Source: Acidobacteriota bacterium
GTDB taxonomy: Bacteria; Acidobacteriota; Thermoanaerobaculia; Thermoanaerobaculales; Sulfomarinibacteraceae
Length of the DNA stretch: 64,000 bases
Assembly: GCA_022340775.1 (NCBI GenBank)
Contig: JAJDNH010000029.1
Coordinates: 1,653 to 65,652 of the forward strand
Direction: 5' to 3'
The translations under genes and the position numbers were made by a program. Of the stretch, positions 575-24,436 are shown in pieces; position 1 is the first letter of the stretch, and the number at the start of each line of letters is the position of its first letter. The notes under the pieces were generated by a model, which had not been told where the DNA came from, did not search any database, and worked only from the letters and a program-made list of their open reading frames with translations.

Positions 575-1630
575 GTGAACAAGACCATGACCACTGCGAG
601 CCTCGTTCTTGCTATGCTCGTCGCCACACTTGGCACCGCCGACGGAGGCACTCCTGCGGAAAAGGGGAAGGCCGTACCGAGCCCGGAGCGCTCGGTCATC
701 GAGCTTCCCGGCGGCGGCGGCAGGATCGGCTTCGACGACGTGGGCTACTCGAAGACGCTGAAGCGAATACTGCTGCCCGGCGGGCGAACCGGCAAGCTCG
801 ACCTCATCGATCCCGCCTCTGGCGCAGTGACTGCCATCACGGGCTTCAGCACCGCTCCGGCCTCCAGCCGCCACGGCGGCGGCATCACGTCGGTGGACCA
901 GGGTGGCGGCTTCCTGTTCGTATCCGACCGCACCGCCCGCACCGTGGACGTCGTCGACGCCGCCACACGGAAGATCGTGACCCACGCCTCCCTGGCCGGC
1001 GGCCCGGACTACGTGCGCTTCGTGGGCCCGACTCGCGAGCTGTGGGTGACCGAGCCGCACGAAGCACGGATCGAGGTCCTCGGCCTGCCGCCCGGAAAGG
1101 CGCCGGTGCCGTTCCACCAGACGTTCATCACGGTCCCCGGAGGACCCGAGTCGCTGGTCGTCGACGCCTCCCGTGGCCTGGCCTACACCAACCTGTGGCG
1201 GAACCAGACGCTGGCCATCGACCTGAAAAAGCAGTCCATCGTTTCTCGCTGGATCAACGGCTGCGCCGCGTCTCGCGGCCTGGCGCTCGATCGCGGCTCC
1301 AACCTGTTGTTCGTGGGTTGTGCCGAGGGCGGCGCTACCGTCCTCGACCTCGCTCACGGCGGCAAGGTCGTCGACACCGCGAAAGCCGGTGAGGGGGTCG
1401 ACATCATCGACTTCTCGCCGGTTCTCCGCCACCTCTACGTTCCCGGCGGACGCAGCGGAACCCTCTCCATCCTCGGGGTTTCCCCCGCCGGCAAGCTGAC
1501 GCTGCTCGGCGAGGTGGCCGCGGCAAAGGGGGTCCACGGCGTTGCCGCCGCCGATGGCAAGGCCTTCGTCCCCGACCCGGAGAACGGCCGCCTCCTGGTC
1601 TTCACCGACCCCTATCCCCGGACACGCTAA
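575..1630 (+). CDS. secreted beta-propeller repeat protein (YncE/YVTN-like)
   Basis: GTG start follows GGAGGA at 565-570. The N-terminal signal peptide is TASLVLAMLVATLGTADG. Repeated strand-rich segments are present (GGPDYVRF, GGPESLVVD, SRGLALD, LYVPGG). Confidence 0.6.
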   Translation: MNKTMTTASLVLAMLVATLGTADGGTPAEKGKAVPSPERSVIELPGGGGRIGFDDVGYSKTLKRILLPGGRTGKLDLIDPASGAVTAITGFSTAPASSRHGGGITSVDQGGGFLFVSDRTARTVDVVDAATRKIVTHASLAGGPDYVRFVGPTRELWVTEPHEARIEVLGLPPGKAPVPFHQTFITVPGGPESLVVDASRGLAYTNLWRNQTLAIDLKKQSIVSRWINGCAASRGLALDRGSNLLFVGCAEGGATVLDLAHGGKVVDTAKAGEGVDIIDFSPVLRHLYVPGGRSGTLSILGVSPAGKLTLLGEVAAAKGVHGVAAADGKAFVPDPENGRLLVFTDPYPRTR

Positions 1631-2988
1631 CTGATCTGGTGGCGCTTCATCTTGCGCCACAGGGTGTTGCGGGAGATCCCGAGGTCCTGTGCCGCACGTG
1701 TGCGGTTGCCGGCGTGACGGTCGAGCGCCTCGCGGATAGCCGCCGCCTCCGCCGCCTCCAGCGGGTTCGCCGTGGCGCCCGGGGGAGGTGGTGAGGCCAG
1801 CGAGCCACCCTGGATGTGGGGGGGCAGGTCGTCGCGGCCGATGATGCTGCCGCCGCACACCACGAAGGCGTGCTCGATGGCGTTCTCGAGCTCGCGCACG
1901 TTGCCCGGAAAGTGGTAGCGCATCAGCACGCCCATGGCTCGCTCCGAGATGCCGCCGATCCGTCTCCCCTGGAGGGCGTTGAAGCGCGAGATGAAGTGCT
2001 CGACGAGGAGTGGGATGTCCTCGGTACGAGAGCGCAGCGGCGGCACCGACAGCCTGACCACGTTGAGCCTGAAGTACAGATCCTGGCGGAAGCGGCCTGC
2101 CATGACCTCCAGTGACAGGTCGCGGTTGGTCGCCGCAACGACCCGGACATCGGCCTTGACCGGGTGCGTGGCGCCGAGAGGGGTGAACTCGCGCTCCTGA
2201 AGCACCCGCAGCAGCTTGACCTGAGCCGCGGGCGAGAGCTCACCGACCTCGTCCAGCAGGAGCGTTCCGCCCGCCGCCACAGCGAACCGCCCCGCCCGGT
2301 CCTGGTACGCGTCGGTGAACGCCCCCCGAACGTGGCCGAACAGCTCCGACTCGACCAGCGTCTCCGGAATCGCCCCGCAGTTGACGGCCACGAACGGCCC
2401 GGCCCGACGCGGCCCGAGGTTGTGGATGGCGCGGGCAATCAGCTCCTTGCCGGTGCCGGGCTCGCCCTCGATCAGGACCGTGCTAACGCTGTTGGCCACC
2501 AACGGTAGCAGCTCGCGCAGGTTCCGCATCCCGGGGCTCTTGGTGATAATGTCCTCGAGCGTGTAAGAGGCCTCCAGGGTGCGCCTGAGCATGGCCAGGT
2601 CGGACAGGTCGCGGAACATCTCCACGCCGCCGACCACCCGCCCCCCCTCGTCACGGAGCGCGGCCGTGCTCACCGCCACCGGCAGCTCCCGCCCGTCGCG
2701 GCGCACGATCCGCACCTCACGGTCGCGGTAGGCGGTGCCGCCTTCGATGCTGTTGAACAGGAAGCACGAGCCCTGGCAGTGGTTGCTGCGCAGGACCTTG
2801 CTGCACAGAAGACCCACCACCTGGTCGCGGCGCCAGCCGGTAATCTCCTCGGCAGCGTGATTGAACGAGGTAATCCGGCCATCCGCGTCGACAGTGAAGA
2901 TGCCGTGCGGCACGTGCTCGAAGATGAGAGCGTTGTAGCGGGGATCGAGGGGCATGTTCATGATATCAATGTGAGGCTTCTGCTCCAA
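1627..2988 (-). CDS. sigma54-dependent transcriptional activator with N-terminal PAS domain
   Basis: PAS segment FTVDADGRITSFNHAAEEITGW. AAA+ Walker A GEPGTGKELIARAIH. The sigma54-contact loop reads GAFTDA. C-terminal Fis-type HTH AAQDLGISRNTLWRKMKRH. Confidence 0.9.
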   Translation of the reverse strand: MEQKPHIDIMNMPLDPRYNALIFEHVPHGIFTVDADGRITSFNHAAEEITGWRRDQVVGLLCSKVLRSNHCQGSCFLFNSIEGGTAYRDREVRIVRRDGRELPVAVSTAALRDEGGRVVGGVEMFRDLSDLAMLRRTLEASYTLEDIITKSPGMRNLRELLPLVANSVSTVLIEGEPGTGKELIARAIHNLGPRRAGPFVAVNCGAIPETLVESELFGHVRGAFTDAYQDRAGRFAVAAGGTLLLDEVGELSPAAQVKLLRVLQEREFTPLGATHPVKADVRVVAATNRDLSLEVMAGRFRQDLYFRLNVVRLSVPPLRSRTEDIPLLVEHFISRFNALQGRRIGGISERAMGVLMRYHFPGNVRELENAIEHAFVVCGGSIIGRDDLPPHIQGGSLASPPPPGATANPLEAAEAAAIREALDRHAGNRTRAAQDLGISRNTLWRKMKRHQIS

Positions 2989-3011
2989 AATTGCAACATG
3001 TCACGGAACAG

Positions 3012-3031
3012 TTGTCACGATCTCGCGACAA
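3012..3031. promoter_or_regulatory. candidate enhancer (UAS) inverted repeat TTGTC-N10-GACAA
   Basis: The sequence TTGTCACGATCTCGCGACAA is centred about 110 bp upstream of the predicted sigma54 transcription start. It lies between the divergent activator gene and the redox operon. Confidence 0.3.
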
Positions 3032-3105
3032 CCGACTCTTGTCCCGCAACAGTCTCTTCCCCCAACTGATTCAGCCACAGTGAGTTCCCGTTTCGGTCCC
3101 GAGGA

Positions 3106-3120
3106 TGGCACACGGTTTGC
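3106..3120 (+). promoter_or_regulatory. sigma54 -24/-12 promoter (TGGCAC-N5-TTGC)
   Basis: TGGCACacggtTTGC has exact GG-N10-GC spacing. A sigma54 activator gene lies immediately divergent. The first operon gene follows, with GGAGG at 3156-3160 and ATG at 3171. Confidence 0.6.
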
Positions 3121-3170
3121 CTTGGACCACGGCGACAGGCATGCGCCCGGCGCACGGAGGAATACACCCA

Positions 3171-4565
3171 ATGGCGATTGAATGCTCGTACTACCTCGAA
3201 CCGGTCGACACTACCGACCTGCCGCGCCGCTTCCTGGAGGCGTTCGCTGCCATTCTCACTCATTCGAACTACGCGATGGCCCTCGACGCCGCGTCTCGCG
3301 TCAGCGCTCGCTGCGGTCGCTGCGCCTCGACCTGCCCCGTGTATCAGGCCAGCAACGACCCGCGCGACATCCCGTGCCTGCGCTCCGAGCTGGTGCTCAA
3401 CGTGTACCGTCGCTACTTCACGCCCGGTGGCGCCCTTTCCACGCGCCTCGGTTCCGGCTTCGAGATCGACGAGGCCTACATCAACACCATGGCCGAGGAG
3501 CTGTACCGCTGCACCGCGTGCCGCCGCTGCAAGCTCGAGTGCCCGATGGGCATCGACCACGGCCTCATCACTCACCTCGGCCGCTGGCTGCTGGCCGAGG
3601 TCGGGATCGTTCCCAAGGCGCTGCGGGTGGCGACCCGTGAGCAGCTGGAGGGCAAGACCAACAACACGTCGGCCATTCCGGCCGCCGCACTCATCGACAC
3701 CTGCGAGTTCCTGGAGGAGGACTGCGTCGACCTCCACGGCTTCAAGATCCACTTCCCCATCGACCAGGAGGACGCCGAGTACATCTTCTTCCCGGCGGTC
3801 AGCGACTACCTGCTCGAGCCCGACACGTTGATGGGCAACGCCGCCGTCATGACCGCCACCAACGCCTCGTGGACGATCGGCACACGCTACTTCGACGGCA
3901 TCAACTACGGTCTCTTCTACTCCGACCGCATGCTCGACCGCATCGTCAACATGGAGGTCGAGGAGCTCAAGCGGCTCAAGGCCCGCACCGTGCTGATCGG
4001 CGAGTGCGGCCACGCGTCGCGCTCCGCCAAGGCGTTCATCCGCACCTTCTGCGGCGGCAACCAGGCGCCCGAGGTGATCAACTGCATGGAGTACGCCCTG
4101 CGCATGGTCAACGAGGGACGGCTGGAGCTGCGCAAGGGCGCCATCGACGCCCGCGTGACCTACCACGACCCCTGCAACATCGCCCGCACGGGGTGGATCA
4201 TCGAGCAGCCGCGCGAGATCCTCCGTCACATTGCGACCGACTTCGTCGACATGACGCCGCACGGCCGCGAGAACTACTGCTGCGGCGGCGGCGGCGGCAC
4301 CGTCTCGATCGACGAGATCCGCTCCTTCCGCACCGGCGTCGGCGGGCGGACCAAGGCCGAGCAGATCCGGAGAACCGGAGCCACGATCCTGGTTTCGCCG
4401 TGCGCGAACTGCAAGAAGCAGCTGCGGGAGGTGTGCGAGGACAACGACCTCGAGCACGTGCAGGTCGTCGGCCTGCACGACCTCATCCTGAAGGCCATCG
4501 TCCCGCCCGCCGAGATGCGGGTCGAGAAGCAACCGGACCCCGAGTCAGAACCGGCCGGCTCATAG
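3171..4565 (+). CDS. HdrD/DsrK/HmcF-like iron-sulfur CCG-domain oxidoreductase subunit (cytoplasmic)
   Basis: Ferredoxin-type motifs CGRCASTCPVY and CTACRRCKLECPMG. Cys-rich CCG-type motifs YHDPCNIAR, NYCCGGGGG and SPCANCKKQ. No signal peptide. I prefer the ATG at 3171 (RBS GGAGG) to the ORF-track ATG at 3105, which overlaps the sigma54 promoter. Confidence 0.8.
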   Translation: MAIECSYYLEPVDTTDLPRRFLEAFAAILTHSNYAMALDAASRVSARCGRCASTCPVYQASNDPRDIPCLRSELVLNVYRRYFTPGGALSTRLGSGFEIDEAYINTMAEELYRCTACRRCKLECPMGIDHGLITHLGRWLLAEVGIVPKALRVATREQLEGKTNNTSAIPAAALIDTCEFLEEDCVDLHGFKIHFPIDQEDAEYIFFPAVSDYLLEPDTLMGNAAVMTATNASWTIGTRYFDGINYGLFYSDRMLDRIVNMEVEELKRLKARTVLIGECGHASRSAKAFIRTFCGGNQAPEVINCMEYALRMVNEGRLELRKGAIDARVTYHDPCNIARTGWIIEQPREILRHIATDFVDMTPHGRENYCCGGGGGTVSIDEIRSFRTGVGGRTKAEQIRRTGATILVSPCANCKKQLREVCEDNDLEHVQVVGLHDLILKAIVPPAEMRVEKQPDPESEPAGS

Positions 4566-4573
4566 GAGGCATC

Positions 4574-5275
4574 GTGGACACCTGGATCGAGCTCGCACGC
4601 GGACCGCTCTTCCGCATCGCCCTGGCCGCCCTGCTCATCGGCCTCGCCTACCGCCTCGGCTCGGCGGCAAGCCAGGTGATCCTGGCCTGGCGCCGTGCAG
4701 GAGACCGCCAGCTCCCCCTGCGCAGCGTGGTGACCGCAACCCTGTCCTGGCTGCTCCCCGTGCGGCTGCTCCGGCAACGGCCGCTGTACGGCATCGCGTC
4801 GCTGCTCTTTCACGTCAGCATCATCGCGTTACCGCTCTTTCTGGCCGGCCACGTGGTCCTGGTTCAGCCGTCGTTGCCGTTTGCATGGCCCCGGCTTCCG
4901 GGCGGCGTCGCCGACACCCTGTCGGTGGTGGCGTTCCTGGCCCTCGGCGCGGTCCTCGTCGGCCGGCTGGCCGTTCGCACCGCGCGCGTCCTGACCCGCT
5001 TTCAGGATGTCGCGGTGCTTGCCCTGCTGCTGTTTCTCGTCGGTTTCGGCTTCCTCGCCGCTCACCCGGCGCTGTCGCCGTTTCCGGCGCGCACCATGCT
5101 CCTGCTCCATATCCTGGCCGGCGATCTGGCCCTGGCCCTCACTCCGGTGACCAAGATCGCCCACTGCATCGTCTACCCGTTCACCCAGCTCATCTTCGAG
5201 CTGGCATGGCACTTCCCCGCCGACAGCGGCCGCCACGTGGTGACCGCCCTGGGTAAGGAGGGTGAGCCCGTATGA
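4574..5275 (+). CDS. NarI/DsrM/HmcE-like integral membrane cytochrome b subunit
   Basis: GTG at 4574 follows AGGAGG at 4564-4569. About five hydrophobic helices carry conserved-looking His residues (FHVSIIALPLFLAGH, LLLHILAGD, KIAHC). It lies in the frame of ORF 3869..5275. Confidence 0.65.
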   Translation: MDTWIELARGPLFRIALAALLIGLAYRLGSAASQVILAWRRAGDRQLPLRSVVTATLSWLLPVRLLRQRPLYGIASLLFHVSIIALPLFLAGHVVLVQPSLPFAWPRLPGGVADTLSVVAFLALGAVLVGRLAVRTARVLTRFQDVAVLALLLFLVGFGFLAAHPALSPFPARTMLLLHILAGDLALALTPVTKIAHCIVYPFTQLIFELAWHFPADSGRHVVTALGKEGEPV

Positions 5276-6060
5276 AGCACTTTGCGATCCTCACCGACGT
5301 CACGCGCTGCATCGGCTGCGAGGCGTGCGTCGAAGCTTGCCAGAAGACCAACGGCACCGGCGACGATGCACCGCATCGATGGCAGCCCGATCCCAACGCC
5401 CTGTCATCGAGCCGCTGGACCACCCTCGCCCACACCCGGGAGGGGCGGTTCGTCCGCGTCCACTGCCGGCACTGCCTCGACCCGTCCTGCGTTGCGGCGT
5501 GTCCGGTCGGCGCCATGCGCCGAACGCCGCAGGGGGCAGTGGTCTACGACCCGGAAATCTGTATGGGGTGCCGCTACTGCATGATCGCCTGCCCGTTCCG
5601 GATGACGCGGTACGAGTGGAGCTCCGCAGTGCCGAAGGTCCGCAAGTGCATCCTCTGCTACCAGAAGGTCATGTCCGGCGAGCTCGAGCAGCCGGCGTGC
5701 ACCGCGGCGTGTCCGACGAAGGCAACCGTGTTCGGCGAGCGCGAGGCGCTGCTGGCCGAGGCACGACGGCGCCTGGCTGCCGAGCCCGAACGCTACATCC
5801 AGCACATTTGGGGTGAGCACGAGGTGGGCGGCACGTCGGTTCTCTACCTGTCCGACGTTCCGCTGGACGAGGCTGGCTGGCCGCGCACCCTCGGCGACCA
5901 CCCTCGCCCCAAGCTGGCCCGCGAGGTGCTCGGCACGGTGCCGTGGACCTTCGCCGGCGTCGCCGTCGCCTGCTATGGCGTCCACTGGACCCTGGACCGC
6001 CGCCGCAAGGTTGCAGCGGCCGAGCACTCCCACGAGGACGAGGATGGAGGCGAACAGTGA
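5272..6060 (+). CDS. 4x[4Fe-4S] ferredoxin-type subunit (HybA/DsrO/HmcB/NrfC-like) with C-terminal TM helix
   Basis: Four Cys clusters: CIGCEACVEAC, CRHCLDPSCVAAC, CMGCRYCMIAC and CILC...CTAAC. C-terminal hydrophobic helix VPWTFAGVAVACYGVHW. ATGA overlap with the upstream gene. No twin-arginine signal is possible because an in-frame TGA sits at 5263. Confidence 0.85.
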   Translation: MKHFAILTDVTRCIGCEACVEACQKTNGTGDDAPHRWQPDPNALSSSRWTTLAHTREGRFVRVHCRHCLDPSCVAACPVGAMRRTPQGAVVYDPEICMGCRYCMIACPFRMTRYEWSSAVPKVRKCILCYQKVMSGELEQPACTAACPTKATVFGEREALLAEARRRLAAEPERYIQHIWGEHEVGGTSVLYLSDVPLDEAGWPRTLGDHPRPKLAREVLGTVPWTFAGVAVACYGVHWTLDRRRKVAAAEHSHEDEDGGEQ

Positions 6061-7997
6061 GCGGCGCGAACAACTCCCGTCTGGTGCTGACCCGCGCCGT
6101 CCTCTGGCTGGTGGTGGGCATCGCCGCCGTGGTGGCCGTGAACCGCTTCGCGCGCGGCCTGGGCGCCACCACCGCCCTCACCGACGCGACGCCGTGGGGC
6201 CTGTGGATCGGCTTTGACGTCCTTGCCGGCGTCGCGCTCGCAGCTGGCGGCTTCGTGATCGCGGCAACCGTCTACATCTTCCACCTCGACCGCTATCACG
6301 CGATCGTACGCCCGGCGGTGCTGACGGCGTTCCTGGGCTACGTCGCGGTCGTGCTCGGGCTGCTGATGGACCTCGGCCGACCGTGGAACATCTGGCGACC
6401 CATGCTCTTCTGGCAGCCTCACTCGCCGCTATTCGAAGTTGCCTGGTGCGTGATGCTCTACCTGACCGTGCTGGCCCTGGAGTTCGCGCCGGTGGTGTTC
6501 GAGGGGCTACGGCTCGAGCGCCCTCTTCGCATCATGCGGCGGCTCACGCTGCTCCTGGTGATCGCCGGCATCGGCCTCTCCACCCTCCATCAGTCCTCCC
6601 TCGGCACCCTGTTCCTGCTCGCCCGCGACCGGCTCCACCCGCTCTGGTATTCGCCGATCCTGCCGCTTCTCTTTCTGGTCTCGGCAGTGGCCCTCGGTCT
6701 GATGATGGTGACCTGTGAGAGCCTGGCCAGCTCCTGGCTGTTCCGGCACCGGCCCGAGTGGCCACTGCTTGGCGGCCTCACGCGGGCAGCGGCCGTCGTC
6801 TCCCTGCTCTACCTCGCCCTCCGCCTCGGCGATCTCGCTTGGCGCCACCAGCTCGTCTACCTGCTCGAGGGCTCGTGGGCGTCGGTGCTGTTCGTCTTCG
6901 AGATCGGCATCAGCGCGGTCGTTCCCGCCCTTCTCTTCCTGCTTCCGTCGACCCGCACGAGCCACGCCGGCGTCGCGACCGGCGCCGTGCTCGGGGTCGG
7001 CGGCTTCGTCCTCTACCGGGCCGACGTCGGCGGAATCGCCCACCTCGCGGTCGGCGGCCACCACTACGTCCCCGCCCTCACCGAGATCGTGGTCAGCGCC
7101 GGCGTGGTGTCGGCGATGGCGTTGGTGTTCCTCTTCCTGGTCGAGCGGTTTCCGGTGTGGGAGGAGCGCCCGCAGGTCCCGGGCCACTTTACGGCGCCGA
7201 TGCGGGATCGCGTGACCGGCACCTTCTTCGGCGGGCCGTGGTTCTCGCGCGCTCACCTGGGGGCGGCCGGGCTCGCGCTGGGCATGGTGCTCGGCGTGGC
7301 GCTGGTTGAGGCCGACGCCCCAACGTCGGCGGCTGCCCGGTTGCGGCCGGTGCCCGCCGCCCGTACGGCGCTGATCCGTGAGGTCAAGCGCAACCCCAGT
7401 CCCGGTCATCGCTTGGAAGTCCTATCACCCGAGCAGGTCACCCAGGACCCGGACGGCATCGAGGCCGCGCTCCTGGTCGGCGGCGGGAGGAACGGGCGCG
7501 TCGTCCTCTTCCCGCACCAGGCCCACCAGCAGCGGCTGGGCGGCCCGGCCTCGTGCGGGAAATGCCACCACCGCAACCTCCGTCACGACCGCGGGACGCC
7601 GTGTACCGCCTGCCATCGCGACATGTATGCCGCCACCGACACCTTCGCCCACCAGCCGCACGTCGAGGGGCTCGGTGGCAACGCTTCCTGCACGAAATGC
7701 CACCAGGCCGGGACAGCACCGGCTCGGGCCTCCGCCCGCGCCTGCGACGCTCCGGCCTGCCACGGTGGTGACGTCAGCACGGCCGCCGTGGCCATCAACC
7801 GCTCCAAGCTGCCGGCGGGGTACGCCCCCGGATACCGCCGCGCCATGCACACGTTGTGCATCGGCTGCCACACCCGTCACGAACAGAAGACCAAGGTCAC
7901 CACGCCCTACCTCAGCCGCTGCACCACCTGCCACCGCGATCGAGCGGTCGAACCCGAGCCGGCCACCGTTGTTGTGGCCCGGCTGGAGGCACCATGA
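6057..7997 (+). CDS. NrfD/HybB/DsrP-like polytopic quinone-interacting membrane subunit fused to a C-terminal hexahaem cytochrome c domain
   Basis: GTGA overlap with the upstream stop. About 10 NrfD-type helices plus an 11th helix (GAAGLALGMVLGVALV). Haem-binding motifs follow: CGKCH, CTACH, CTKCH, CDAPACH (CX4CH), CIGCH and CTTCH. Confidence 0.8.
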   Translation: MSGANNSRLVLTRAVLWLVVGIAAVVAVNRFARGLGATTALTDATPWGLWIGFDVLAGVALAAGGFVIAATVYIFHLDRYHAIVRPAVLTAFLGYVAVVLGLLMDLGRPWNIWRPMLFWQPHSPLFEVAWCVMLYLTVLALEFAPVVFEGLRLERPLRIMRRLTLLLVIAGIGLSTLHQSSLGTLFLLARDRLHPLWYSPILPLLFLVSAVALGLMMVTCESLASSWLFRHRPEWPLLGGLTRAAAVVSLLYLALRLGDLAWRHQLVYLLEGSWASVLFVFEIGISAVVPALLFLLPSTRTSHAGVATGAVLGVGGFVLYRADVGGIAHLAVGGHHYVPALTEIVVSAGVVSAMALVFLFLVERFPVWEERPQVPGHFTAPMRDRVTGTFFGGPWFSRAHLGAAGLALGMVLGVALVEADAPTSAAARLRPVPAARTALIREVKRNPSPGHRLEVLSPEQVTQDPDGIEAALLVGGGRNGRVVLFPHQAHQQRLGGPASCGKCHHRNLRHDRGTPCTACHRDMYAATDTFAHQPHVEGLGGNASCTKCHQAGTAPARASARACDAPACHGGDVSTAAVAINRSKLPAGYAPGYRRAMHTLCIGCHTRHEQKTKVTTPYLSRCTTCHRDRAVEPEPATVVVARLEAP

Positions 7998-8416
7998 GCG
8001 AGCCACAACCCGCGCGTGCCCCGGTGATCGCCATCATCGACGACGAGCAGGACATCATCACCTACCTGCGCGTCGCGCTCGAGGATCACGGCTTCCGTGT
8101 CGTGGCCACGACCGACCCCGCGAGCGCCCCGGCTCTGCTCGAGCAGGCCTGCCCCGATTTGATCTGCCTTGACATCCTGATGCCCGAGCACACCGGCCTC
8201 GCCCTCTACGCCGAGATCATGGGAAGCCCGCGTCTGGCGTCGGTGCCGGTCGTGATCCTGAGCGGCCTCAACGCCAACGACGAGCTCCTCAACCAGGTTT
8301 GGAACACCAACAACCTGCCGGCGCCGGCGAGCTTCATCGAGAAGCCCGTGGACATCGAGCACCTGCTTCGAACCCTCCGCGCCGTGCTGGGTCAGCAGGT
8401 GGGGGTGGCGCCATGA
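7994..8416 (+). CDS. single-domain response regulator (receiver only)
   Basis: Receiver residues IIDDE, LICLDILMP, VVILSG and FIEKP. ATGA overlaps on both sides. Confidence 0.85.
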   Translation: MSEPQPARAPVIAIIDDEQDIITYLRVALEDHGFRVVATTDPASAPALLEQACPDLICLDILMPEHTGLALYAEIMGSPRLASVPVVILSGLNANDELLNQVWNTNNLPAPASFIEKPVDIEHLLRTLRAVLGQQVGVAP

Positions 8417-10218
8417 CCGCCGTCGCGTGGCATCCCGAGTGGCGGGCCGAGCTGGTCGACCAGTTCCTCGCCGGCGTCATGGTCCTCGACCGCAGCCTGG
8501 CCATCGCCGACCATAACCGCGCCTTCACCGAGATGTTCGGTGAGGCGCGCGGGAACAAGTGCTACAAGGTGCTCAAGGGCCGGTCAGAGCCGTGCGGCAT
8601 CTGCGCCGCAATGAGCACCTTCAACGATGGCCGCCGCAGGGTGTTGGAGCAGGTGGGGCAGGACAGGGAGGGGCGCCCCGTCAACTACCTGGTGCAGGTC
8701 GGGCCGCTGCGCGACCCCGCCGGGGACATCGCCTTCACCGCTGTCATCACCACCGACCTCACCGCCACCAAGCGGCTGCAGCGCGAGTACCAGGCTCTGT
8801 TCGAGAAGGTCCCCTGCTACGTCGCGGTGCTCAACCGGGACTTCCGAGTGGTCAAGGCCAACGAGCAGTTTCGGCGCACGTTCGGGGAGCCGACCGGCGA
8901 GCACTGCCACGAGATGTTCAAGAAAAGCCCCGAACGGTGCGCGGGGTGTCTGGTCGAGCAGACGTTCCGCGACGGCGAACCCCATACGGCCCCTCACACG
9001 GGCATCGCCTGTGACGGCGAAACCACCCACTACCTCGCTTTCACCACACCTCTGCTCAACGAGAGCGGCGAGGTGAGGCACGTCATCCACATGTCGCTCG
9101 ACGTCACCGAAGTCAGGGCCCTGGCCGACGAGTTGGGACGCGCCAACGAGATCCGCCGGGCGCTTGTCGAGAGCTCGCTGGACGCCATCGCCGTCACCGA
9201 CGAGCACCGTCGCGTGGTGATGCTCAACCGGGCGGCCGAGCAGCTGTGGGGAGTCTCCCGCGACGATCTCGTGGGCCGGACGGTACCCCGCTGGATGCTG
9301 CCGGCCGAGTTGGCCCCGGTGCTGAAGAACGAGGCCGAGCAGGAGCTGGTCCACGACGCTCGAGTCTCGACCGCCTCCGGCGTCCAGGTCCCGGCGCGGA
9401 TCGGCGCCGTCTCGCTCTCGGTCGAGAACCGCTTCTCGGGCGCCGCGGTGTTCGCGCAGGACCTTCGCGAGCTGAAGAAGCTCGAGCGGGAGAAGCTGGA
9501 GGCGGAGAGGTTGGCTGCGGTGGGTCAGACCGTGGCCGGCCTTGCCCACGGCATCAAGAACATCCTCACCGGGCTCGAGGGCGGCATGTACGTGACCTCG
9601 TCCGGGCTCAAGCGCGGTGACCAGGGACGCATCCGCCAGGGCTGGGAGATGCTCGAACGCAACATGTCACGGGTCTCCGACCTGGCGAAGAACCTGCTCG
9701 CATTCTCGCGTGGGGATCACCCGGAACCCGAGCTGGTGCGGCCGGCCGACATCGTCCACGACGTGGTGACGCTCTTTCGTGACGGCGCAGCCCAGCACGG
9801 GATTGAGCTGGAGGGAGTCGTCGACGACTCCGTCGAGCCGGCCTGGATGGATCCAGAGGCCATCCACAGCTGTCTCGCCAACCTGGTCTCCAACGCCATC
9901 GACGCCTGCCTGGTGAGCCAGGACCCTGGATGCCGGGTCGAGCTCCACCTCCGCGAGGCCGACGCCGCCATCATCTTCGAGGTGGTGGACAGCGGCTGCG
10001 GCATGGACTACGAGGTCAAGCAAAAAGCGTTTACCAGCTTCTTCACCACCAAGGGCAAGGGCGGAACGGGCCTCGGCCTGCTCCTCACCCGTAAGATAGT
10101 CCAGGAGCACGGCGGTTCGATCACCCTGGAAAGCACACCGGGCCAGGGCAGCACCTTCCGCCTGCGCTTCCCGCGGGCGCGGCTGCCGGAGCCACAGGGC
10201 AAGGAGTCGACTTCATGA
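8413..10218 (+). CDS. soluble multi-PAS sensor histidine kinase
   Basis: No TM segment. PAS-like repeats are present and the first two carry C-X10-C-X2-C motifs. H-box LAHGIKN. ATPase boxes NLVSNAIDA, DSGCGM and GGTGLGL. Confidence 0.9.
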   Translation: MTAVAWHPEWRAELVDQFLAGVMVLDRSLAIADHNRAFTEMFGEARGNKCYKVLKGRSEPCGICAAMSTFNDGRRRVLEQVGQDREGRPVNYLVQVGPLRDPAGDIAFTAVITTDLTATKRLQREYQALFEKVPCYVAVLNRDFRVVKANEQFRRTFGEPTGEHCHEMFKKSPERCAGCLVEQTFRDGEPHTAPHTGIACDGETTHYLAFTTPLLNESGEVRHVIHMSLDVTEVRALADELGRANEIRRALVESSLDAIAVTDEHRRVVMLNRAAEQLWGVSRDDLVGRTVPRWMLPAELAPVLKNEAEQELVHDARVSTASGVQVPARIGAVSLSVENRFSGAAVFAQDLRELKKLEREKLEAERLAAVGQTVAGLAHGIKNILTGLEGGMYVTSSGLKRGDQGRIRQGWEMLERNMSRVSDLAKNLLAFSRGDHPEPELVRPADIVHDVVTLFRDGAAQHGIELEGVVDDSVEPAWMDPEAIHSCLANLVSNAIDACLVSQDPGCRVELHLREADAAIIFEVVDSGCGMDYEVKQKAFTSFFTTKGKGGTGLGLLLTRKIVQEHGGSITLESTPGQGSTFRLRFPRARLPEPQGKESTS

Positions 10219-10805
10219 GACCAGACACGGACACTCCGCCTCACCAGACCGCAGAGACCGGTACCGGAGGGCAACGATCCTTGAGCGACCTCTCGATCCT
10301 GGTCGTCGACGACGAGCCGGATGTTGCGGTGTACCTCGCATCAGTGCTCGAGGACGCGGGTTTTGCAGTGCTCACGGCAGGCGACGGCGAAGAAGCGATG
10401 CGGCTGATTCGCAGCCGGCGGCCCGCCTTGATCTCGCTCGACCTGGTGATGCCGGGCAAGTCAGGGATCCGCCTCCTCGCCGAGCTGCGTCGCGACCGGG
10501 AGCTCAGGCGCATTCCGGTGGTGATCGTGTCCGGCCACGCCCACGATGCAGGTGTGCGCCGCGACCTCGACGAGGTGCTGGCTGACAGCTCCATGGTCGG
10601 ACCCTCGCTGTGTCTGGACAAGCCGATTACTCCTGAAAAGTACGTGCGCCACGTATGTGAGCTGCTCGGAGTGGAAGCACCCGACGAAGCTGAGCGGACC
10701 GACCCGACCGATGAGCTGCGCCGCGACGCCGTGGACCTTCTGGGCACTGCCGACCAGGACACCCTGGAGGCCGTGCTCGCGGAGCTGCGAAGGAGGAACC
10801 GATGA
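10215..10805 (+). CDS. single-domain response regulator with N-terminal extension
   Basis: Receiver residues VVDDEPD, LISLDLVMPGKSG, VVIVSG and CLDKP. ATGA overlaps with both neighbours. Confidence 0.85.
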   Translation: MRPDTDTPPHQTAETGTGGQRSLSDLSILVVDDEPDVAVYLASVLEDAGFAVLTAGDGEEAMRLIRSRRPALISLDLVMPGKSGIRLLAELRRDRELRRIPVVIVSGHAHDAGVRRDLDEVLADSSMVGPSLCLDKPITPEKYVRHVCELLGVEAPDEAERTDPTDELRRDAVDLLGTADQDTLEAVLAELRRRNR

Positions 10806-11209
10806 CACGCGAGTCCTCACCCCGCCGCATTCTGATCATCGACGACGACCCCGATGTGGTCACGTACCTGGAAACCGTCTTCCGCGACAACGGGTACGAG
10901 CCCTTGTGCGCGACCGACGGCGATGCCGGCCTCGAGCTGGCACGCGCCCAGCTTCCCGACCTCATCTGCCTGGACATCTCGATGCCGGCCCCGAGCGGCG
11001 TCCGGGTCTACCGCGAGCTCCGCGGAGATCCCAAGCTGTCGGGTATCCCGGTCGTGATGGTCACCGGCGTCCTACGGCAGTTCGAGGAGTTCATCGGCAG
11101 GCGCCGTCAGGTCCCACCCCCGGACGGCTACATCGCCAAGCCGTTCCAGGTCGAGGAGCTGCTGAGCGTCGTGCGCCGCCTCCTCCGGACGCCGGCCGCA
11201 ACAAGCTAG
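10802..11209 (+). CDS. single-domain response regulator
   Basis: Receiver residues IIDDDPD, LICLDISMPAPSG, VVMVTG and YIAKP. ATGA overlap with the upstream gene. Confidence 0.85.
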   Translation: MTRESSPRRILIIDDDPDVVTYLETVFRDNGYEPLCATDGDAGLELARAQLPDLICLDISMPAPSGVRVYRELRGDPKLSGIPVVMVTGVLRQFEEFIGRRRQVPPPDGYIAKPFQVEELLSVVRRLLRTPAATS

Positions 11210-11451: not shown

Positions 11452-12672
11452 ATGGACGGCCGTGGCCGTGCACCAGAGCGCTTGAACTCGCCGCAACCGC
11501 GGCTGGGCTCGGTCGACGTCATCCCACATCTTTACGACGCCGCAGTCCAGCCGTCCGCCTGGGCCGGGGCGCTCGAGGCTGCTGCCGAGCTCCTTCAGGC
11601 TGCCGCAGTCATCCTCGAGTGCGGCCCACCGTGCGCAGGCCTGATCCACATCATCGCCTCATCGGGGCTCTCTGCAGAGCTCGTCACAGCCTACAACCGG
11701 AACCACATCGGTAATGATGAGCTGCTGCAGGAGGCTCTGGCACGTCCGGCGGGGATGCTGATCTCCAGCCGCCTGGCCCTATCCGATGCGGCCCTCGAAC
11801 GGTCCTCGCTGTTTCGCAACCTGCTGCGGCCGGCTGGTCTTCTGGAGATGGCGGGGACTGCCTTCGTCAAGGAGGCAGACCTGTTTGCGGGCGTGTGGAT
11901 CGCCCGCGGCGCCGGATCCCCGACCTTCTCCGAAACCGAGTATCAGCTCCTGCGCGAGCTCCTCCCGCACATGGAACGCGTCGTCACGGTCCGAAACCGG
12001 GTCGCTCAGGCGGAGCAGATGGCAGAGCTCACGGCCGGCGCCTTCGACCGCGTCGCCATGGGCGTCGTGCTGATGGATGGGCTCGGCCGGCCGCTGCTGA
12101 CCAACCGCGAGGCTCGCAACATCGGCAACGAGGGCGACGGATTCACCATCCTGCCGGATGGGCCGGCCGCCGCCAGGCACGACGACACCAGAATGCTCCG
12201 CGCCGCCATTCGGAAGGCCGGAGGCGCAGACCGCTCGACCTCCGGCCCGGCCGGGAAGGCCCTGCGGCTCGCCAGACCCTCTGGCCGCTCCGAGTACCAG
12301 GTCGTGGTGCTGCCTCTGCCCCAACGATGCCAGCCGGCCGACGCCAGCGGCGTGGTCGCGGTGCTGTTCGTCACCGACCCCGAGAGATCCCACAGCCCGA
12401 TCGACCATCTGGTAGCTGACCTGTTCGGGCTCACCGAGGCCGAGGTTCGCCTCGTCATGCAGCTGCTGGGGGGCAGCACTCTCACCGACGCAGCAGAGAC
12501 CCTCGGGTTGTCACGGAACACGGTTCACTCGCAGCTCGCCAGCGTCTTCCGCAAGACCGGCACCAGCAGGCAGAGCGACCTCGTGAGGGTGGTGCTGCGG
12601 GCACTGGCGCCGGTTCGGGGCCCCGACGACTCCTCGGGGTTCTACATCGTTCCAGACGACGGACGTTGGTGA
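11452..12672 (+). CDS. LuxR-family transcriptional regulator (C-terminal HTH)
   Basis: C-terminal segment LTEAEVRLVMQLLGGSTLTDAAETLGLSRNTVHSQLASVFRKTG. The N-terminal region IPHLYDAAVQPSAWAGAL is typical of orphan LuxR-type regulators. The start is uncertain: ATG at 11452 after GGAGG, or GTG at 11404. Confidence 0.75.
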   Translation: MDGRGRAPERLNSPQPRLGSVDVIPHLYDAAVQPSAWAGALEAAAELLQAAAVILECGPPCAGLIHIIASSGLSAELVTAYNRNHIGNDELLQEALARPAGMLISSRLALSDAALERSSLFRNLLRPAGLLEMAGTAFVKEADLFAGVWIARGAGSPTFSETEYQLLRELLPHMERVVTVRNRVAQAEQMAELTAGAFDRVAMGVVLMDGLGRPLLTNREARNIGNEGDGFTILPDGPAAARHDDTRMLRAAIRKAGGADRSTSGPAGKALRLARPSGRSEYQVVVLPLPQRCQPADASGVVAVLFVTDPERSHSPIDHLVADLFGLTEAEVRLVMQLLGGSTLTDAAETLGLSRNTVHSQLASVFRKTGTSRQSDLVRVVLRALAPVRGPDDSSGFYIVPDDGRW

Positions 12673-12740
12673 GAGCGCGCCCGGCCGGAGACCCACCTTC
12701 CGACCACGAGCCTGGCCCGTGACAGCGCAATGGACGACCC

Positions 12741-13253
12741 TCATTCGCCAACCCGCACCCGCGGGCCCTCGTCCGTGTCTTCGGGATCGTCCTGCTCCCA
12801 GGCGGATCTCCCGGCCACCATGATGTTGCGGATCGTGCCCGCGGGTGAGCGGGCCTTGATCCTCCAGGCCAAACGGTCAGGGAAACGGTCATACGTCAGC
12901 ACCGGCTTGCCGAGGTCCTCGTTGGGCATCGCAAACTCGGCCGCCCGCCGCAGCACCCTGTCCGGATCCAGCCAGTCCGCAGCATCCGGTACACCTTCGA
13001 AGCTGTCCGACCTGCGCCGAAACGAAACCTGGCGAATCAACAGCAGATTACAGTCCAGCTGCAGGTACCCAACCATATGATGCTTGATCGTCACCGGAAC
13101 CAGCCACGAATGAGGACCGCCCCGCGGCTGGCTGACCATCAGGGGCGTGCCCACGACACCCCGCTGGCGCATCAGCTCCTCTCCCAGCTGGCCGGCGGCC
13201 ATCATTCCCCGGACGCGTCGAAGAACGTCCTTGGGCGACCGCTTCTCGGTCAT
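12741..13253 (-). CDS. hypothetical protein
   Basis: A 170-aa ORF starting MTEKRSPKDV with balanced composition and slightly lower local GC. No motif recognised. Confidence 0.35.
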   Translation of the reverse strand: MTEKRSPKDVLRRVRGMMAAGQLGEELMRQRGVVGTPLMVSQPRGGPHSWLVPVTIKHHMVGYLQLDCNLLLIRQVSFRRRSDSFEGVPDAADWLDPDRVLRRAAEFAMPNEDLGKPVLTYDRFPDRLAWRIKARSPAGTIRNIMVAGRSAWEQDDPEDTDEGPRVRVGE

Positions 13254-13520
13254 GACTCGGCCAGGCTCGGATGCATGCGTTCGTCTCCACAGGCCGGCGC
13301 GGTACACGTGGTTGCGGCCGGGGAGTAGCGTCTCTGTACAAGCACCCGGCCCACCGGCTGATACCGGCATTAATGGCGCGGGCGACAGGCGTCGTCATCA
13401 CCCAAATGGGCTAACGAAATGAACAGCTCCCCGAATCGCTTGTATCTACCGGACCGCGACATCCGCGCCGTAGCGAACCGGCGCAGACGCTGCGCGGCCT
13501 GGCCACGAAAGGAGAGCTGA

Positions 13521-14507
13521 ATGCACGCACGCGAACTGGGAAAGGACGGCCTGACCGTGTCCGCGATCGGTCTGGGGTGCATGGGGATGTCCGAGTTCTA
13601 CGGACCGAGCGAGGAGGAGCAGTCCATCGAGGTTCTGCACCACGCCCTGGGCGCCGGCATCAACTTCTGGGACACCGCGGACATGTACGGGCAGGGTAAG
13701 AACGAGCATCTCGTGGGAAGGGCGCTGCGCGGCCACCGGGACGAGGTCGTCCTGGCAACGAAGTTCGGGATCGTGCGGGGCGAGGACGCGAGCTTCCGCG
13801 GAGTGTGCGGCACTCCCGAGTACGTCAAGCAGGCCTGCGACGCCAGCCTGAAGCGCCTCGGCATCGACCACATCGACCTGTACTACCAGCATCGCGTCGA
13901 CCCGCAGGTGCCGATCGAGGACACCGTCGGTACGATGTCCGATCTGGTTGCGGCTGGCAAGGTTCTCCACCTCGGCCTCTCGGAAGCCTCCGCGCCAACC
14001 CTCCGCAGGGCGGCCGCGGTCCATCCGATCACGGCGCTCCAGTCCGAGTACTCGCTATGGAGCCGCGATCCGGAGGACCAGGTACTGCCCGCCTGCCGAG
14101 AGCTCGGCATCAGCCTGGTGGCCTACAGCCCCCTCGGCCGCGGGTTCCTGAGCGGCGCCATCCAGAGCATCGACGATCTGGCCCCGGACGACTACCGCCG
14201 CTTCAGCCCGCGCTTCCAGGGAGAAAACTTCGAGAAGAACCTCGAGCTGGTGAGACGGATCGAGGAGCTTGCCGCCGTCAAGGGCTGCACTCCGGCCCAG
14301 CTGGCGCTCGCGTGGCTGATGGCACAGGGACCGGAGGTGGTGCCGATCCCGGGGACCCGACGCATCGAGCGTCTGGAGGAGAACGCCGCGGCGACCGAGA
14401 TCGAGCTGTCGGCCGAAGAGCTCGCCCGTATCGATGAGGTGGTGCCCCGGGACCTGGTGGTCGGTGCACGCTACCCCGAGGCGGCGATGTCGTTCATCGA
14501 CGGCTAA
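13521..14507 (+). CDS. aldo/keto reductase
   Basis: Family motifs [29 protein letters not shown] and [10 protein letters not shown]. Confidence 0.9.
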
Positions 14508-14875
14508 CTCGCTGTCTGTCGCGACCGACAGCGGTGGCAGCCGCCGCCCCATCCCCCGCGCCCGGCCGGCTCTCCCGTGCCAGTGGAGCAACAACCGAGC
14601 CCGGCCGCGCTATGATCCAATCCAGCACGCGGCGGCCGGTGCGGTGAGGCCCGTCTATGGCTGTAACCGGCAAACCCGGCCTTCGTAAGAAACTGGGGAC
14701 CGAGACGCGCCCGACGCGCCAGCCGGCGGCGGGCCCCCGCCACGGTTCAGCAACCACAAGAACGCGTCAGTCCAGGCGCCTTGCCAGGTGACCGCGCCGA
14801 CCTTTGGCCGGGAGCGTTCCGAAGGCTGCAAAGGCGCCTGCGGCGGATAGCGCACGAGCTGGGAGGATTGGAGTC

Positions 14876-16309
14876 ATGAAGAGCATCGTCTCGTCGTTCA
14901 TTCTCATCGTGGCCGCGGCGGCGGCGCCCGCGCTGGCCCAGTACACTCCCGTCAAAGGCGAGGCGCCCTCGCCACCGGCGGGGTTGAGCTCAACCATGTT
15001 GAACGAGCTGCAGAGCTCGTTCGAGATGACGCCGCAGATGCGGGCCACCCGCAACGCCCTCGCGAACCACAGTATTCACTCTTTGGCTATCGACCAGGAC
15101 GTCGTCAACCGCACCGACAACCTGTTCACGCACGAGATCAAACACCCCGGCTCCATCACCAACCAGGCGTCTTCCGGCCGCTGCTGGCTGTTCGCCGGTC
15201 TGAACATCCTGCGGCCGGTGGTCATGAACAAGTTCAACATGAAAGACTTCACGCTCTCGCAGGCGTACGAGCAGTTCTTCCAGAAGCTGGAGGCCGCCAA
15301 CCGATCCCTGGAGCTGGCCATCACGCTGCGAGACGAGCCCCTGCACAGCCGCCGCATGGACACGCTGCTCAAGCACGTGATCAGCGACGGCGGCAACTGG
15401 AACTACGTTCAGGCGCTGATCGAGAAGTACGGCGCGGTGCCGGAGAGCGTGATGCCGAACGGCTATGCCGCCTCTCACACGCGGGAGATGAACGCACTGA
15501 TGGCCGCGCGCCTGCGCAAGGCCGTCGCCCAGATCCGCAAGCAGGCTGGGGAGGGCGCCGATGTAGCCACCCTGCGGCAGCTCAAGACGGGCGTCCTCAA
15601 GGACGTCTACAAGATCCTCGTCCTCTGCCTCGGCCAGCCCCCCCAGACCTTCACCTGGCGCTACGAGACGAAGGATGACAAGGTCAGCGCCCTCGAGACC
15701 TACACCCCGCTCTCTTTCTACCAGAAGTTCCTGGGCGCCGACCTCAACGACTTCGTGCGCTTCGTCAACTACCCGGGCCAGCCAATGCACGCCAACCTCG
15801 AGTGGGCGTGGGAACGCAACATGGCCGACCGGCCCGACCTCGAAGCGGTCAACGTCACCATGAAGGAGCTCGAGGACATGTCTCTCAAGTCCGTCCTTGC
15901 CGATGAGCCGGTCTGGTTCGGCGCCAACTCCGCCGCCGACGGTGACTACAAGAAGGGACTGTGGATCGACGGCATCGTGGACGCGACCGACGTGTTCGGC
16001 ATCGACTTCTCGATGGACAAGGCCGACGCCCTGGCCTACGACAACGGCACCCCCAACCACGCGATGGTGTTCACCGGGGTGGACGTCCAGGACGGCGCGC
16101 CAGCCAAGTGGAAGGTCGAGAACTCGTGGGGCACCAAAGCTGGAGACAAGGGATGGTTCACGATCGGCGCCCGTTGGTTCGACAGACACGTCTTCGAGGT
16201 CATCATCAACAAGCGGTTCGTGCCGCCCGATCTTCTGAAGCTGACAGACCAGAAGGCCTTGGTGCTGCCGCCCTGGGACCCCTTCAGCGACTGGGCCAGC
16301 GGTCTATAG
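14876..16309 (+). CDS. pepC: C1-family aminopeptidase C / bleomycin-hydrolase-like cysteine peptidase with signal peptide
   Basis: Active-site context QASSGRCWLFAGLN, then HAMVFTGVD and ENSWG. C-terminal PPWDPF tail. N-terminal MKSIVSSFILIVAAAAAPALAQ. ATG at 14876 follows GGAGG. Confidence 0.8.
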   Translation: MKSIVSSFILIVAAAAAPALAQYTPVKGEAPSPPAGLSSTMLNELQSSFEMTPQMRATRNALANHSIHSLAIDQDVVNRTDNLFTHEIKHPGSITNQASSGRCWLFAGLNILRPVVMNKFNMKDFTLSQAYEQFFQKLEAANRSLELAITLRDEPLHSRRMDTLLKHVISDGGNWNYVQALIEKYGAVPESVMPNGYAASHTREMNALMAARLRKAVAQIRKQAGEGADVATLRQLKTGVLKDVYKILVLCLGQPPQTFTWRYETKDDKVSALETYTPLSFYQKFLGADLNDFVRFVNYPGQPMHANLEWAWERNMADRPDLEAVNVTMKELEDMSLKSVLADEPVWFGANSAADGDYKKGLWIDGIVDATDVFGIDFSMDKADALAYDNGTPNHAMVFTGVDVQDGAPAKWKVENSWGTKAGDKGWFTIGARWFDRHVFEVIINKRFVPPDLLKLTDQKALVLPPWDPFSDWASGL

Positions 16310-16442
16310 AGGGTGCTGGCACGCGCCCCAGCTGCTTGAATTGAACAGGGGTCGCCGCGACGGTACCATGGAGAAGACGTCTCGGCTCAAACCAGGTCGG
16401 CGGCGCCCGGCGGGCCGCCAAGCAGCACACGAGGGGTTCCCC

Positions 16443-16820
16443 ATGGAATCGTACGACAAGACCCGTCGCGACCCACGAGCTCCCTTCGAGGGAGACGTCC
16501 GCATCGAGTTTTCCAACCTGTCATCGTTCGTCTCCGAGTGCGTCACCAACATCTCCCTCGGGGGTATGTTCATCAGTACTACCAGGCTAGCGCCACTGGG
16601 AACACGGTTCCGTTTCGAGCTCGCGGTCAGCAGCGGCCTCGACCTGGTGTCCGGCGAAGCCGAGGTGGTTTGGACCCACGAGCAGACGACCTCTCCGCTC
16701 GACCCTGCCGGTATGGGGGTTCGCTTCATCAAGCTGGACGGTGACAGCCGGGAGGTCATCTTCAAGATCGTCGATACCTTCATCCAGGAGACCGGCCGCG
16801 ACCCGTTCTCGCTCGAGTAG
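16443..16820 (+). CDS. PilZ-domain protein (myxobacterial-paralog type)
   Basis: Motifs RRDPRAPFEGDVRIEF, NISLGGMFI and VVWT..GMGVRF. The start at ATG 16443 is chosen for the GAGGGG RBS; alternatives are at 16368 and 16341. Confidence 0.65.
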   Translation: MESYDKTRRDPRAPFEGDVRIEFSNLSSFVSECVTNISLGGMFISTTRLAPLGTRFRFELAVSSGLDLVSGEAEVVWTHEQTTSPLDPAGMGVRFIKLDGDSREVIFKIVDTFIQETGRDPFSLE

Positions 16821-18595: not shown

Positions 18596-18740
18596 CGACG
18601 CCTCGCTTCCTTCCGCACAGACGCCGCGCCGAGCGACGACCCGCGTCGCAGGAGTCTACCTTTTCCTGCTTCGTAGGGGAGAAAGGTGGAGCGCGCCGAG
18701 TTGCGAGGGGACGGCGCCGTTGATCACGGGCCCTGGAGTT

Positions 18741-24435: not shown

Positions 24436-24436
24436 C

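Follow-up and report, generated by a model that had tools for sequence, protein, structure and literature searches.

The 64,000-nt window analysed here is a stretch of contig JAJDNH010000029.1 from an Acidobacteriota bacterium. On its forward strand it harbors four consecutive redox genes, here called F, E, B and C::cyt, which encode an iron-sulfur protein with a CCG domain, a NarI-type membrane protein, a four-cluster ferredoxin and an NrfD-type membrane protein fused to a hexahaem cytochrome c (Table 1). A sequence-only reading of this DNA had described these genes as an orphan relative of the Hmc and DsrMKJOP complexes in the order K-M-O-P::cytochrome. Pfam and NCBIfam searches recovered all four genes with the domains it had named, and both the order and the subunit composition were borne out by family matches and synteny. 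The GC content of the window is 67%, and real genes were picked by their GC content at third codon positions. That the redox genes are real follows from their high third-position GC content (0.87-0.92), from the 100% identity of F and C::cyt to NCBI-annotated proteins of 464 and 646 amino acids from an Acidobacteria metagenome-assembled genome (MAG), and from the conservation of all their cofactor ligands across homologues. The NCBI labels of these two proteins are "(Fe-S)-binding protein" for F and "Ni/Fe-hydrogenase cytochrome b subunit" for C::cyt.

Start and stop codons overlap as ATGA or GTGA at the junctions E/B, B/C::cyt, C::cyt/RR1, RR1/kinase, kinase/RR2 and RR2/RR3, and a short gap separates F from E. 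At six of the seven junctions a purine-rich ribosome-binding site (GGAGG or GGAG) lies just before the start codon; the RR1/kinase junction shows a G-rich stretch only. The overlapping junctions indicate a translationally coupled operon of eight genes (3171-11209), the redox genes being its first half. The 195-nt gap after RR3 showed no intrinsic terminator. Together with a divergently transcribed sigma-54 activator, the operon makes up a nine-gene block, which recurs in relatives from the Thermoanaerobaculia amid unrelated flanks; homologues of the activator flank the cluster in many related loci. The earlier delimitation of a four-gene unit at 3105-7997 was correct with respect to the four redox genes and their end at 7997, but the real unit is the nine-gene block, F begins at 3171, and the first 66 bases of that interval are non-coding and belong to the sigma-54 promoter region. 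About 0.8 kb recovered upstream of the window contained no informative genes.

Table 1. Features of the redox gene block and of a second locus in the 64-kb window
Feature	Position	Strand	Evidence and remarks
Conserved upstream region with near-palindrome TTGTCACGATCTCGCGACAA at 3012-3031	2985-3035		Read directly; aligns with relatives; putative activator site
Divergent sigma-54 enhancer-binding activator (PAS, AAA+ sigma-54 interaction domain, Fis-type helix-turn-helix)	1627-2988	-	Pfam Sigma54_activat 2.3e-66, PAS, HTH_8
Sigma-54 -24/-12 promoter TGGCAC-N5-TTGC	3106-3120	+	Sole zero-mismatch match in 64 kb
F, DsrK/HmcF/TmcB-like CCG iron-sulfur protein	3171-4565	+	ATG start, GGAGG ribosome-binding site
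E, HmcE/TmcC-like NarI-type membrane protein	4574-5275	+	GTG start, GGAGG ribosome-binding site
B, HmcB/HybA-like four-cluster ferredoxin with C-terminal membrane helix	5272-6060	+	Family matches
C::cyt, HmcC/HybB-type NrfD protein with hexahaem c domain	6057-7997	+	GTG start; family matches
RR1, single-domain response regulator	7994-8416	+	ATGA start overlaps C::cyt stop; kept in relatives
PAS-PAS histidine kinase	8413-10218	+	Pfam PAS_4, HATPase_c; start overlaps RR1 stop; no membrane-spanning segment noted
RR2, response regulator receiver with C-terminal extension	10215-10805	+	Pfam; overlap
RR3, single-domain response regulator, last operon gene	10802-11209	+	Pfam; overlap
Tandem BMC-domain shell protein	24437-25033	-	
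Aldehyde dehydrogenase	25030-26520	-	
EutN/CcmL vertex protein	26577-26891	-	
BMC-H protein	26891-27202	-	
DeoC/LacD aldolase	27891-28721	-	
RpiB	28721-29272	-	

The promoter upstream of F is a perfect -24/-12 element, TGGCACACGGTTTGC, overlapped by the ATG at 3105. In an alignment of six relatives, the TGG..AC and TGC of the element are invariant and found at the same position, and the conserved palindromic region upstream of it aligns as well. Judged from its sequence, the near-palindrome TTGTCACGATCTCGCGACAA in this region is a putative binding site of the activator. Similar sigma-54 sites precede the operon in 18 of 47 loci, compared with about 1% of random 360-nt control segments. Expression would start from this promoter under control of the PAS-domain activator, and the operon brings its own PAS kinase and three receiver proteins.

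Pfam assigns two 4Fe-4S motifs and one CCG domain to F. The Cys residues of the CCG domain (C335, C370, C371, C411 and C414, plus C279) are conserved in 53 homologues. The top PDB matches of an AlphaFold2 model of F (predicted local distance difference test, pLDDT, 74.8) are mycobacterial EtfD, LutA and HdrB, and these structural matches of the model confirm the predicted CCG fold. Near the N-terminus, residues 16-35 (window 3216-3275) form a twin-arginine-containing motif, DRPRRFLEAFAAILKHSNY, that is strongly conserved. Its interpretation as a twin-arginine translocation (Tat) signal that carries B was rejected because the putative h-region contains a Glu and has a length of only about nine residues, because the segment is a confidently predicted helix of the fold (pLDDT 86-88), and because the relatives of F are cytoplasmic.

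In E, four His residues (H82, H95, H181 and H199) are 100% conserved in 55 sequences. Inspected by eye, they would be the ligands of a dihaem b centre, located on helices 2 and 5 as in NarI, and the distribution of hydrophobic segments and charged loops suggests five helices with the N-terminus outside and the C-terminus inside.

The C::cyt protein (Pfam NrfD, 1.5e-18) is composed of ten NrfD helices, an 11th helix (approximately 7248-7304), a linker and a c3/c7-like hexahaem domain (approximately 7500-7997) with Pfam matches to Cytochrom_CIII and c7. The haem motifs, six in number and conserved, extend from 7554 to 7934 and include one that reads CX4CH in the window; six invariant additional His residues in the cytochrome domain are candidates for distal ligands. 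The hexahaem domain alone matched only 310 cluster representatives among 1.84 billion, nearly always at a protein C-terminus, and thus appears specific to the C::cyt family. The Pfam match, helix count, HybB-like residues and structural neighbours of C::cyt place its membrane part in the ten-helix HybB/HmcC/QrcD class of the NrfD/PsrC superfamily, in whose members helices A and B flank a pair of four-helix bundles. The AlphaFold2 model has 11 helices, with ActC and ActF of alternative complex III as best PDB matches. As the haem domain is necessarily outside, 11 helices imply a cytoplasmic N-terminus and a cytochrome outside the membrane. C::cyt is 33% identical to E. coli HybB and matches its residues at D58, R89, Y99, D109, S129, E133, E148, E155, H184, S186/187 and H200; these are invariant in the C::cyt family, with the exception of H193 (at least 90% of sequences). 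In HybB they have been assigned to the quinone site and a proton channel on the cytoplasmic side, and the canonical orientation of ten-helix NrfD proteins is with the N-terminus in the cytoplasm (PMC8076601). Furthermore, QrcD, HybB and HmcC have been argued to share an electrogenic mechanism (Duarte et al. 2018, PMC6303296). The conservation of ligands and of HybB residues thus upholds the earlier view that NarI-type and NrfD-type membrane modules are combined with a cytoplasmic CCG protein.

The ferredoxin B retains 16 of 16 Cys residues across 69 sequences, enough for four [4Fe-4S] clusters. A conserved basic RRR(M)K follows its membrane helix, and the mean number of Lys/Arg is 4.4 after the helix versus 1.75 before it, a charge bias that predicts a periplasmic iron-sulfur domain. 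Across about 70 loci B consistently lacks a signal peptide, and in many of them its start is closely preceded by stop codons. The alignment of B begins at position 37 of the HmcB profile and at residue 38 of HybA. B aligns to HybA, HmcB, DsrO, NrfC and TtrB only past their Tat-signal regions, and from the very start to the hitchhiker-type proteins FdnH, DmsB, QrcC and ArrB. No conserved carrier gene for B was found in the related loci. The consistent lack of a Tat signal in a tail-anchored protein with a predicted periplasmic domain is a puzzle, and one that the sequence-only reading had not noticed. For another signal-less, tail-anchored ferredoxin paired with a HybB-like protein, hitchhiking on an adjacent Fe-Fe hydrogenase has been proposed (PMC10924467).

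The distribution of the cluster was studied in the best 80 of at least 596 confirmed relatives from species-level genomes, all 80 being MAGs. The neighbourhood survey that the sequence-only reading had called for showed the order F-E-B-C::cyt with all five parts in 53 of these 80 loci, which represent over ten phyla. Full-length homologues of C::cyt number at least 120, with identities of 53-86%. Carriers include Acidobacteriota, Gemmatimonadota, Planctomycetota, Ignavibacteria/Kapabacteria/Kryptoniota/Bacteroidota, Zixibacteria, Myxococcales and Thermodesulfobacteriota, among others, as well as MAGs labelled Hyphomicrobiales. Searches of the 64-kb window by tblastn with Dsr proteins revealed no dsr genes, and Pfam scans of its approximately 55 open reading frames (ORFs) revealed no dsr, apr, hydrogenase or molybdoenzyme genes, in agreement with the earlier statement that no terminal enzyme gene is present in the window. 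The term "orphan" is accurate locally, but not for the family: dsr genes were found in the fetched flanks (within 10 kb) at 16 of the 53 loci, where the cluster is embedded in or lies beside them, and at 11 of the 32 loci with at least 5 kb on both sides. A neighbour-joining tree of the C protein has the dsr-linked loci dispersed among its branches and places L001 nearest to the window, followed by the dsr-linked L002 from the sister lineage. The association with dissimilatory sulfite reductase genes is thus recurrent, not obligatory.

Several loci illustrate this linkage. In L015, the cluster is followed by genes for a YeiH-like protein, DsrA (604 bits, cut-off 393), DsrB (522 bits, cut-off 341), a DsrL-like and a DsrN-like protein, and DsrC. 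In L081, which has the exact regulator suite of the window, the block is located between a DsrM-like/DsrK-like pair and a pair of genes with NIR_SIR domains in the arrangement of dsrAB. Two toxin-antitoxin pairs of the VapB/PIN and ParE/PhdYeFM types (6579-8019) are inserted between the DsrM/DsrK-like pair and the activator of this locus, which suggests that the junction beside the activator is a plastic region. The F protein of L081 appears in 88 assembly blocks. L053 harbors a complete DsrMKJOP directly upstream of the cluster, all subunits of which score above their cut-offs (K 731, O 281, P 441, M 500 and J 145 bits), and separate DsrMK are present in L002, L034, L040, L047, L049, L051, L057 and L065. 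A Pfam search of the small ORFs after dsrB in relatives did not detect DsrD. Several host phyla of the cluster, among them Acidobacteria, Gemmatimonadetes, Planctomycetes, Ignavibacteria and Zixibacteria, are also reported to contain DsrL (PMC7596348).

Three further arrangements were observed among the related loci. L009, a Thermodesulfobacteriota MAG, holds a second cluster (12608-18700, reverse strand) in which a sigma-54 activator and homologues of F and E are accompanied by a separate hexahaem cytochrome (197 amino acids, signal-anchored) that is homologous to the fused domain; this cluster is devoid of a ferredoxin or NrfD gene. This Tmc-like layout ties the hexahaem cytochrome to the E-F arm. 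L067-L080 represent a separate family with only a signal-less ferredoxin and an unfused HybB-like NrfD protein; upstream of this pair an unannotated protein of roughly 240 amino acids is encoded once or twice, and downstream of it come a histidine kinase (one example with a CxxCH motif) and a sigma-54 activator. In about 18 loci, a small Nitro_FeMo-Co protein (similar to NifX or the C-terminus of MrpORP) is encoded between the activator and F or nearby on the opposite strand (for example L005 6528-7037, L030 3471-4556, L034 6596-6961 and L085 18920-19297); it is absent from the window.

The profile search of each subunit set the cluster apart from the characterized complexes: the equivalog cut-offs that NCBIfam sets for Hmc, Dsr, Tmc, Qrc and Hyb are not attained by any subunit of the window. 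Against the Hmc models (cut-offs in brackets), B scored 227 bits for HmcB (420), C::cyt 304 for HmcC (550) and 33 for HmcA (400), E 100 for HmcE (275), with an E-value of 1.5e-28, and F 197 for HmcF (750). Against the Dsr models, F scored 279 bits for DsrK (400), B 103 for DsrO (200) and C::cyt 40 for DsrP (350), and there was no match to DsrM (300) by E or to DsrJ (100). The Tmc models gave 184 bits for TmcB (735) with F and 108 for TmcC (240) with E, at an E-value of 4.5e-31, and no TmcD-like ORF was found. The hydrogenase-2 models HybA (263) and HybB (450) were matched by B and C::cyt with 204 and 288 bits, with no hydrogenase gene in the window or in relatives with annotated flanks. For QrcD, C::cyt scored 110 bits.

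By its components the cluster is most similar to HmcABCDEF of Desulfovibrio vulgaris, which likewise combines a multihaem cytochrome c, a tail-anchored four-cluster ferredoxin, a ten-helix NrfD protein, a NarI-type cytochrome b and a CCG protein. Hmc models are the top or joint top matches of B, C::cyt and E, and the pairing of a NarI-type dihaem b protein with a cytoplasmic CCG subunit, indicated by invariant His and CCG Cys residues, is a feature of both. The differences are numerous. HmcA is a separate periplasmic cytochrome with 16 haems, whereas six haems are fused to the C-terminus of the NrfD protein in the window; the small hydrophobic HmcD has no counterpart, and the abutting or overlapping genes leave no room for an ORF; and the order is F-E-B-C instead of A-B-C-D-E-F. 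HmcB-type ferredoxins have their own Tat signal, which B lacks although clusters and tail are present. Both operons include regulator genes, rrf1 and rrf2 in the case of Hmc (PMC10924467), but the cluster differs in its sigma-54/PAS control. Finally, Hmc occurs in the Desulfovibrionaceae, the cluster in Acidobacteriota, Gemmatimonadota, Ignavibacteria, Planctomycetota and other phyla.

DsrMKJOP has the same five modules in a K-M and an O-P-J arm, F is nearest to DsrK by score, and the cluster often adjoins dsrAB, dsrC, dsrL, dsrN and dsrMK. In contrast, DsrJ is a trihaem protein and the cytochrome of the cluster is a hexahaem protein with apparent bis-His ligation, and by score neither is E DsrM-like nor C::cyt DsrP-like. 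TmcB and TmcC correspond to F and E; compared with TmcABCD, the window cluster adds a ferredoxin and NrfD arm, is without TmcD and has six haems instead of the four of TmcA. QrcABCD, HybAB and alternative complex III share with the cluster an NrfD protein of the ten-helix class, a four-cluster ferredoxin and a membrane-attached multihaem cytochrome c. Unlike these, the cluster contains neither a molybdopterin-like subunit of the QrcB or ActB1 type nor a hydrogenase, and it has an additional cytochrome b and CCG arm reaching the cytoplasm. Mycobacterial EtfD resembles E plus F in its NarI-like cytochrome b and cytoplasmic CCG domain, but is one fused polypeptide which delivers electrons from electron-transfer flavoprotein to menaquinone and has no periplasmic arm. 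A full-text search of the literature found no paper describing the cluster, nor is it mentioned in papers dealing with sulfate reducers of the Acidobacteria and the Ignavibacteria group, with Dsr synteny or with DsrL. The cluster is apparently an undescribed, distinct, widespread and compact variant of the CCG-linked membrane complexes of the Hmc, Tmc and Dsr type.

Considering gene content, cofactor ligands, conserved order, promoter and the dsr linkage in relatives, we favour with moderate confidence an Hmc-type transmembrane electron-transfer system in compact form that would connect haems in the periplasm with the menaquinone pool and a CCG site in the cytoplasm. We infer its physical assembly, electron path, substrate, partner and direction as follows. 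The periplasmic hexahaem domain, tethered by the extra helix to the NrfD subunit, would exchange electrons with B, and B would serve the quinone site of the NrfD subunit, which retains the residues assigned in HybB to the quinone site and the cytoplasmic-side proton channel. The NarI-type dihaem b protein E would move electrons through the membrane to F. On the cytoplasmic side, catalysis probably takes place at the intact CCG cluster site of F. The two arms of a menaquinone redox loop, one similar to Qrc or HybAB and one to DsrMK or Tmc, would thus be joined, with the cytochrome positioned to serve both. In carriers with dsr genes, the likeliest cytoplasmic substrate would be a trisulfide or disulfide of the DsrC type, and DsrC-type chemistry is probable at the CCG site.

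Several points weigh against this interpretation. Not all CCG proteins carry out thiol/disulfide chemistry: EtfD, which is structurally the best match of F, does not, and neither do LutA and GlpC. There are no dsr genes near the window or its closest relatives (L001 and L084-L086), and so DsrC may not be the substrate in these organisms. B has neither a Tat signal nor a visible export partner, which leaves its predicted periplasmic site, and hence the canonical electron path, unsecured. The cytochrome domain is modelled with low confidence (pLDDT below 50), the four proteins may form one complex or two, and every functional claim on this family derives from sequences and structure models.

The division into two complexes deserves the most attention among the alternatives. 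B and C::cyt could be a cytochrome c:menaquinone oxidoreductase similar to Qrc, Nhc or HybAB, and E and F a menaquinol:acceptor oxidoreductase similar to DsrMK, HdrDE or EtfD, two co-transcribed enzymes in contact through the quinone pool only. Each half has stand-alone relatives, namely the loci L067-L080 with B and C only and the F-E-cytochrome cluster of L009, and self-sufficient modules of both kinds are known in EtfD (cytochrome b and CCG domain) and in Qrc (NrfD module, PMC6303296). However, the four-gene order with overlapping start and stop codons is strictly kept in 53 loci, the cytochrome goes with F-E when B-C is absent and is fused to C when it is present, and Hmc as the nearest relative is regarded as one complex (PMC10924467); we therefore consider two separate enzymes rather unlikely. 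The four proteins could instead serve as membrane module for an enzyme exported by the Tat system and encoded at another site, such as a periplasmic hydrogenase or a molybdoenzyme, on which B would hitchhike. This would explain why B has no Tat signal in any locus while its basic tail predicts a periplasmic domain, and why its N-terminus aligns like those of FdnH, DmsB, QrcC and ArrB. The Fe-Fe hydrogenase example mentioned above provides a precedent (PMC10924467), and the NCBI name of C::cyt points in the same direction. Against it stands the finding that no hydrogenase or molybdopterin gene appears in the window, in the clustering of conserved neighbours of the related loci or in the few annotated flanks. 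The block changes its genomic surroundings as a whole, regulators included, and it already possesses a periplasmic redox partner in the cytochrome. Close relatives carry it in unrelated flanks devoid of a catalytic gene, so that a catalytic subunit just outside the window, the case that would have undermined the sequence-only reading, is unlikely. This explanation is judged improbable.

A divergent DsrMKJOP in which DsrJ was replaced by a larger cytochrome fused to DsrP would account for the one-to-one correspondence of the modules K, M, O, P and J, for the best score of F being that against DsrK, for a JGI record naming a homologue "[DsrC]-trisulfide reductase subunit K", and for the adjacent dsr genes at 16 loci. 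It is contradicted by L053, where a true DsrMKJOP beside the cluster identifies the latter as a distinct paralogous family and not an orthologue. Several other loci hold separate DsrMK, and all scores are under the Dsr cut-offs, with no DsrM match for E and 40 bits for DsrP against 304 for HmcC in C::cyt. This origin has hardly any probability left, and the compact Hmc-type system continues to be the preferred explanation.

Beyond the redox operon, the window contains a bacterial microcompartment (BMC) locus on the reverse strand (23879-29272; Table 1), which we take to resemble the sugar-aldolase type of Planctomycetes and Verrucomicrobia. The only sulfur-related genes seen in the window are those for a TauE/SafE sulfite-exporter family membrane protein (53156-54223, reverse strand) and an adjoining, divergently oriented pyridine nucleotide-disulfide oxidoreductase (54392-55843, forward strand), a pair spanning 53156-55843. 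A B12-binding radical SAM protein with DUF4070 (18741-20342, reverse strand) and a hybrid histidine kinase of 1089 aa that has PAS and GAF domains and two matches to receiver domains (35108-38377, forward strand) show no evident tie to the cluster.

In many non-classical dsr lineages, several of which have DsrMK only, the supply of electrons to DsrC and the conservation of energy are unsettled. A complex that recurs beside dsrAB, dsrC, dsrL and dsrMK in several phyla is a concrete candidate for the missing membrane link. More tentatively, the Hmc-type system proposed here could be a distinct, phylum-spanning and self-regulated respiratory module with both arms of the menaquinone loop. In the newly recognised dsr-bearing lineages among Acidobacteriota, Gemmatimonadota, Ignavibacteria/Kryptoniota and Zixibacteria it might then be a main route from periplasmic or extracellular carriers to DsrC turnover, either as a partner of DsrJOP or as an alternative to it where only DsrMK is present. 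Its four-cluster ferredoxin would then be exported to the periplasm in some other way than through a Tat signal of its own or through a carrier encoded next to it. This signal-less, apparently periplasmic ferredoxin raises a clear question concerning Tat export. In metabolic reconstructions from metagenomes, the public names of F and C::cyt would be misleading. As the family shows, the Hmc, Tmc, Qrc and Dsr complexes are assembled from modules that can be exchanged; its cytochrome is either fused to the NrfD protein or stands alone beside E and F.

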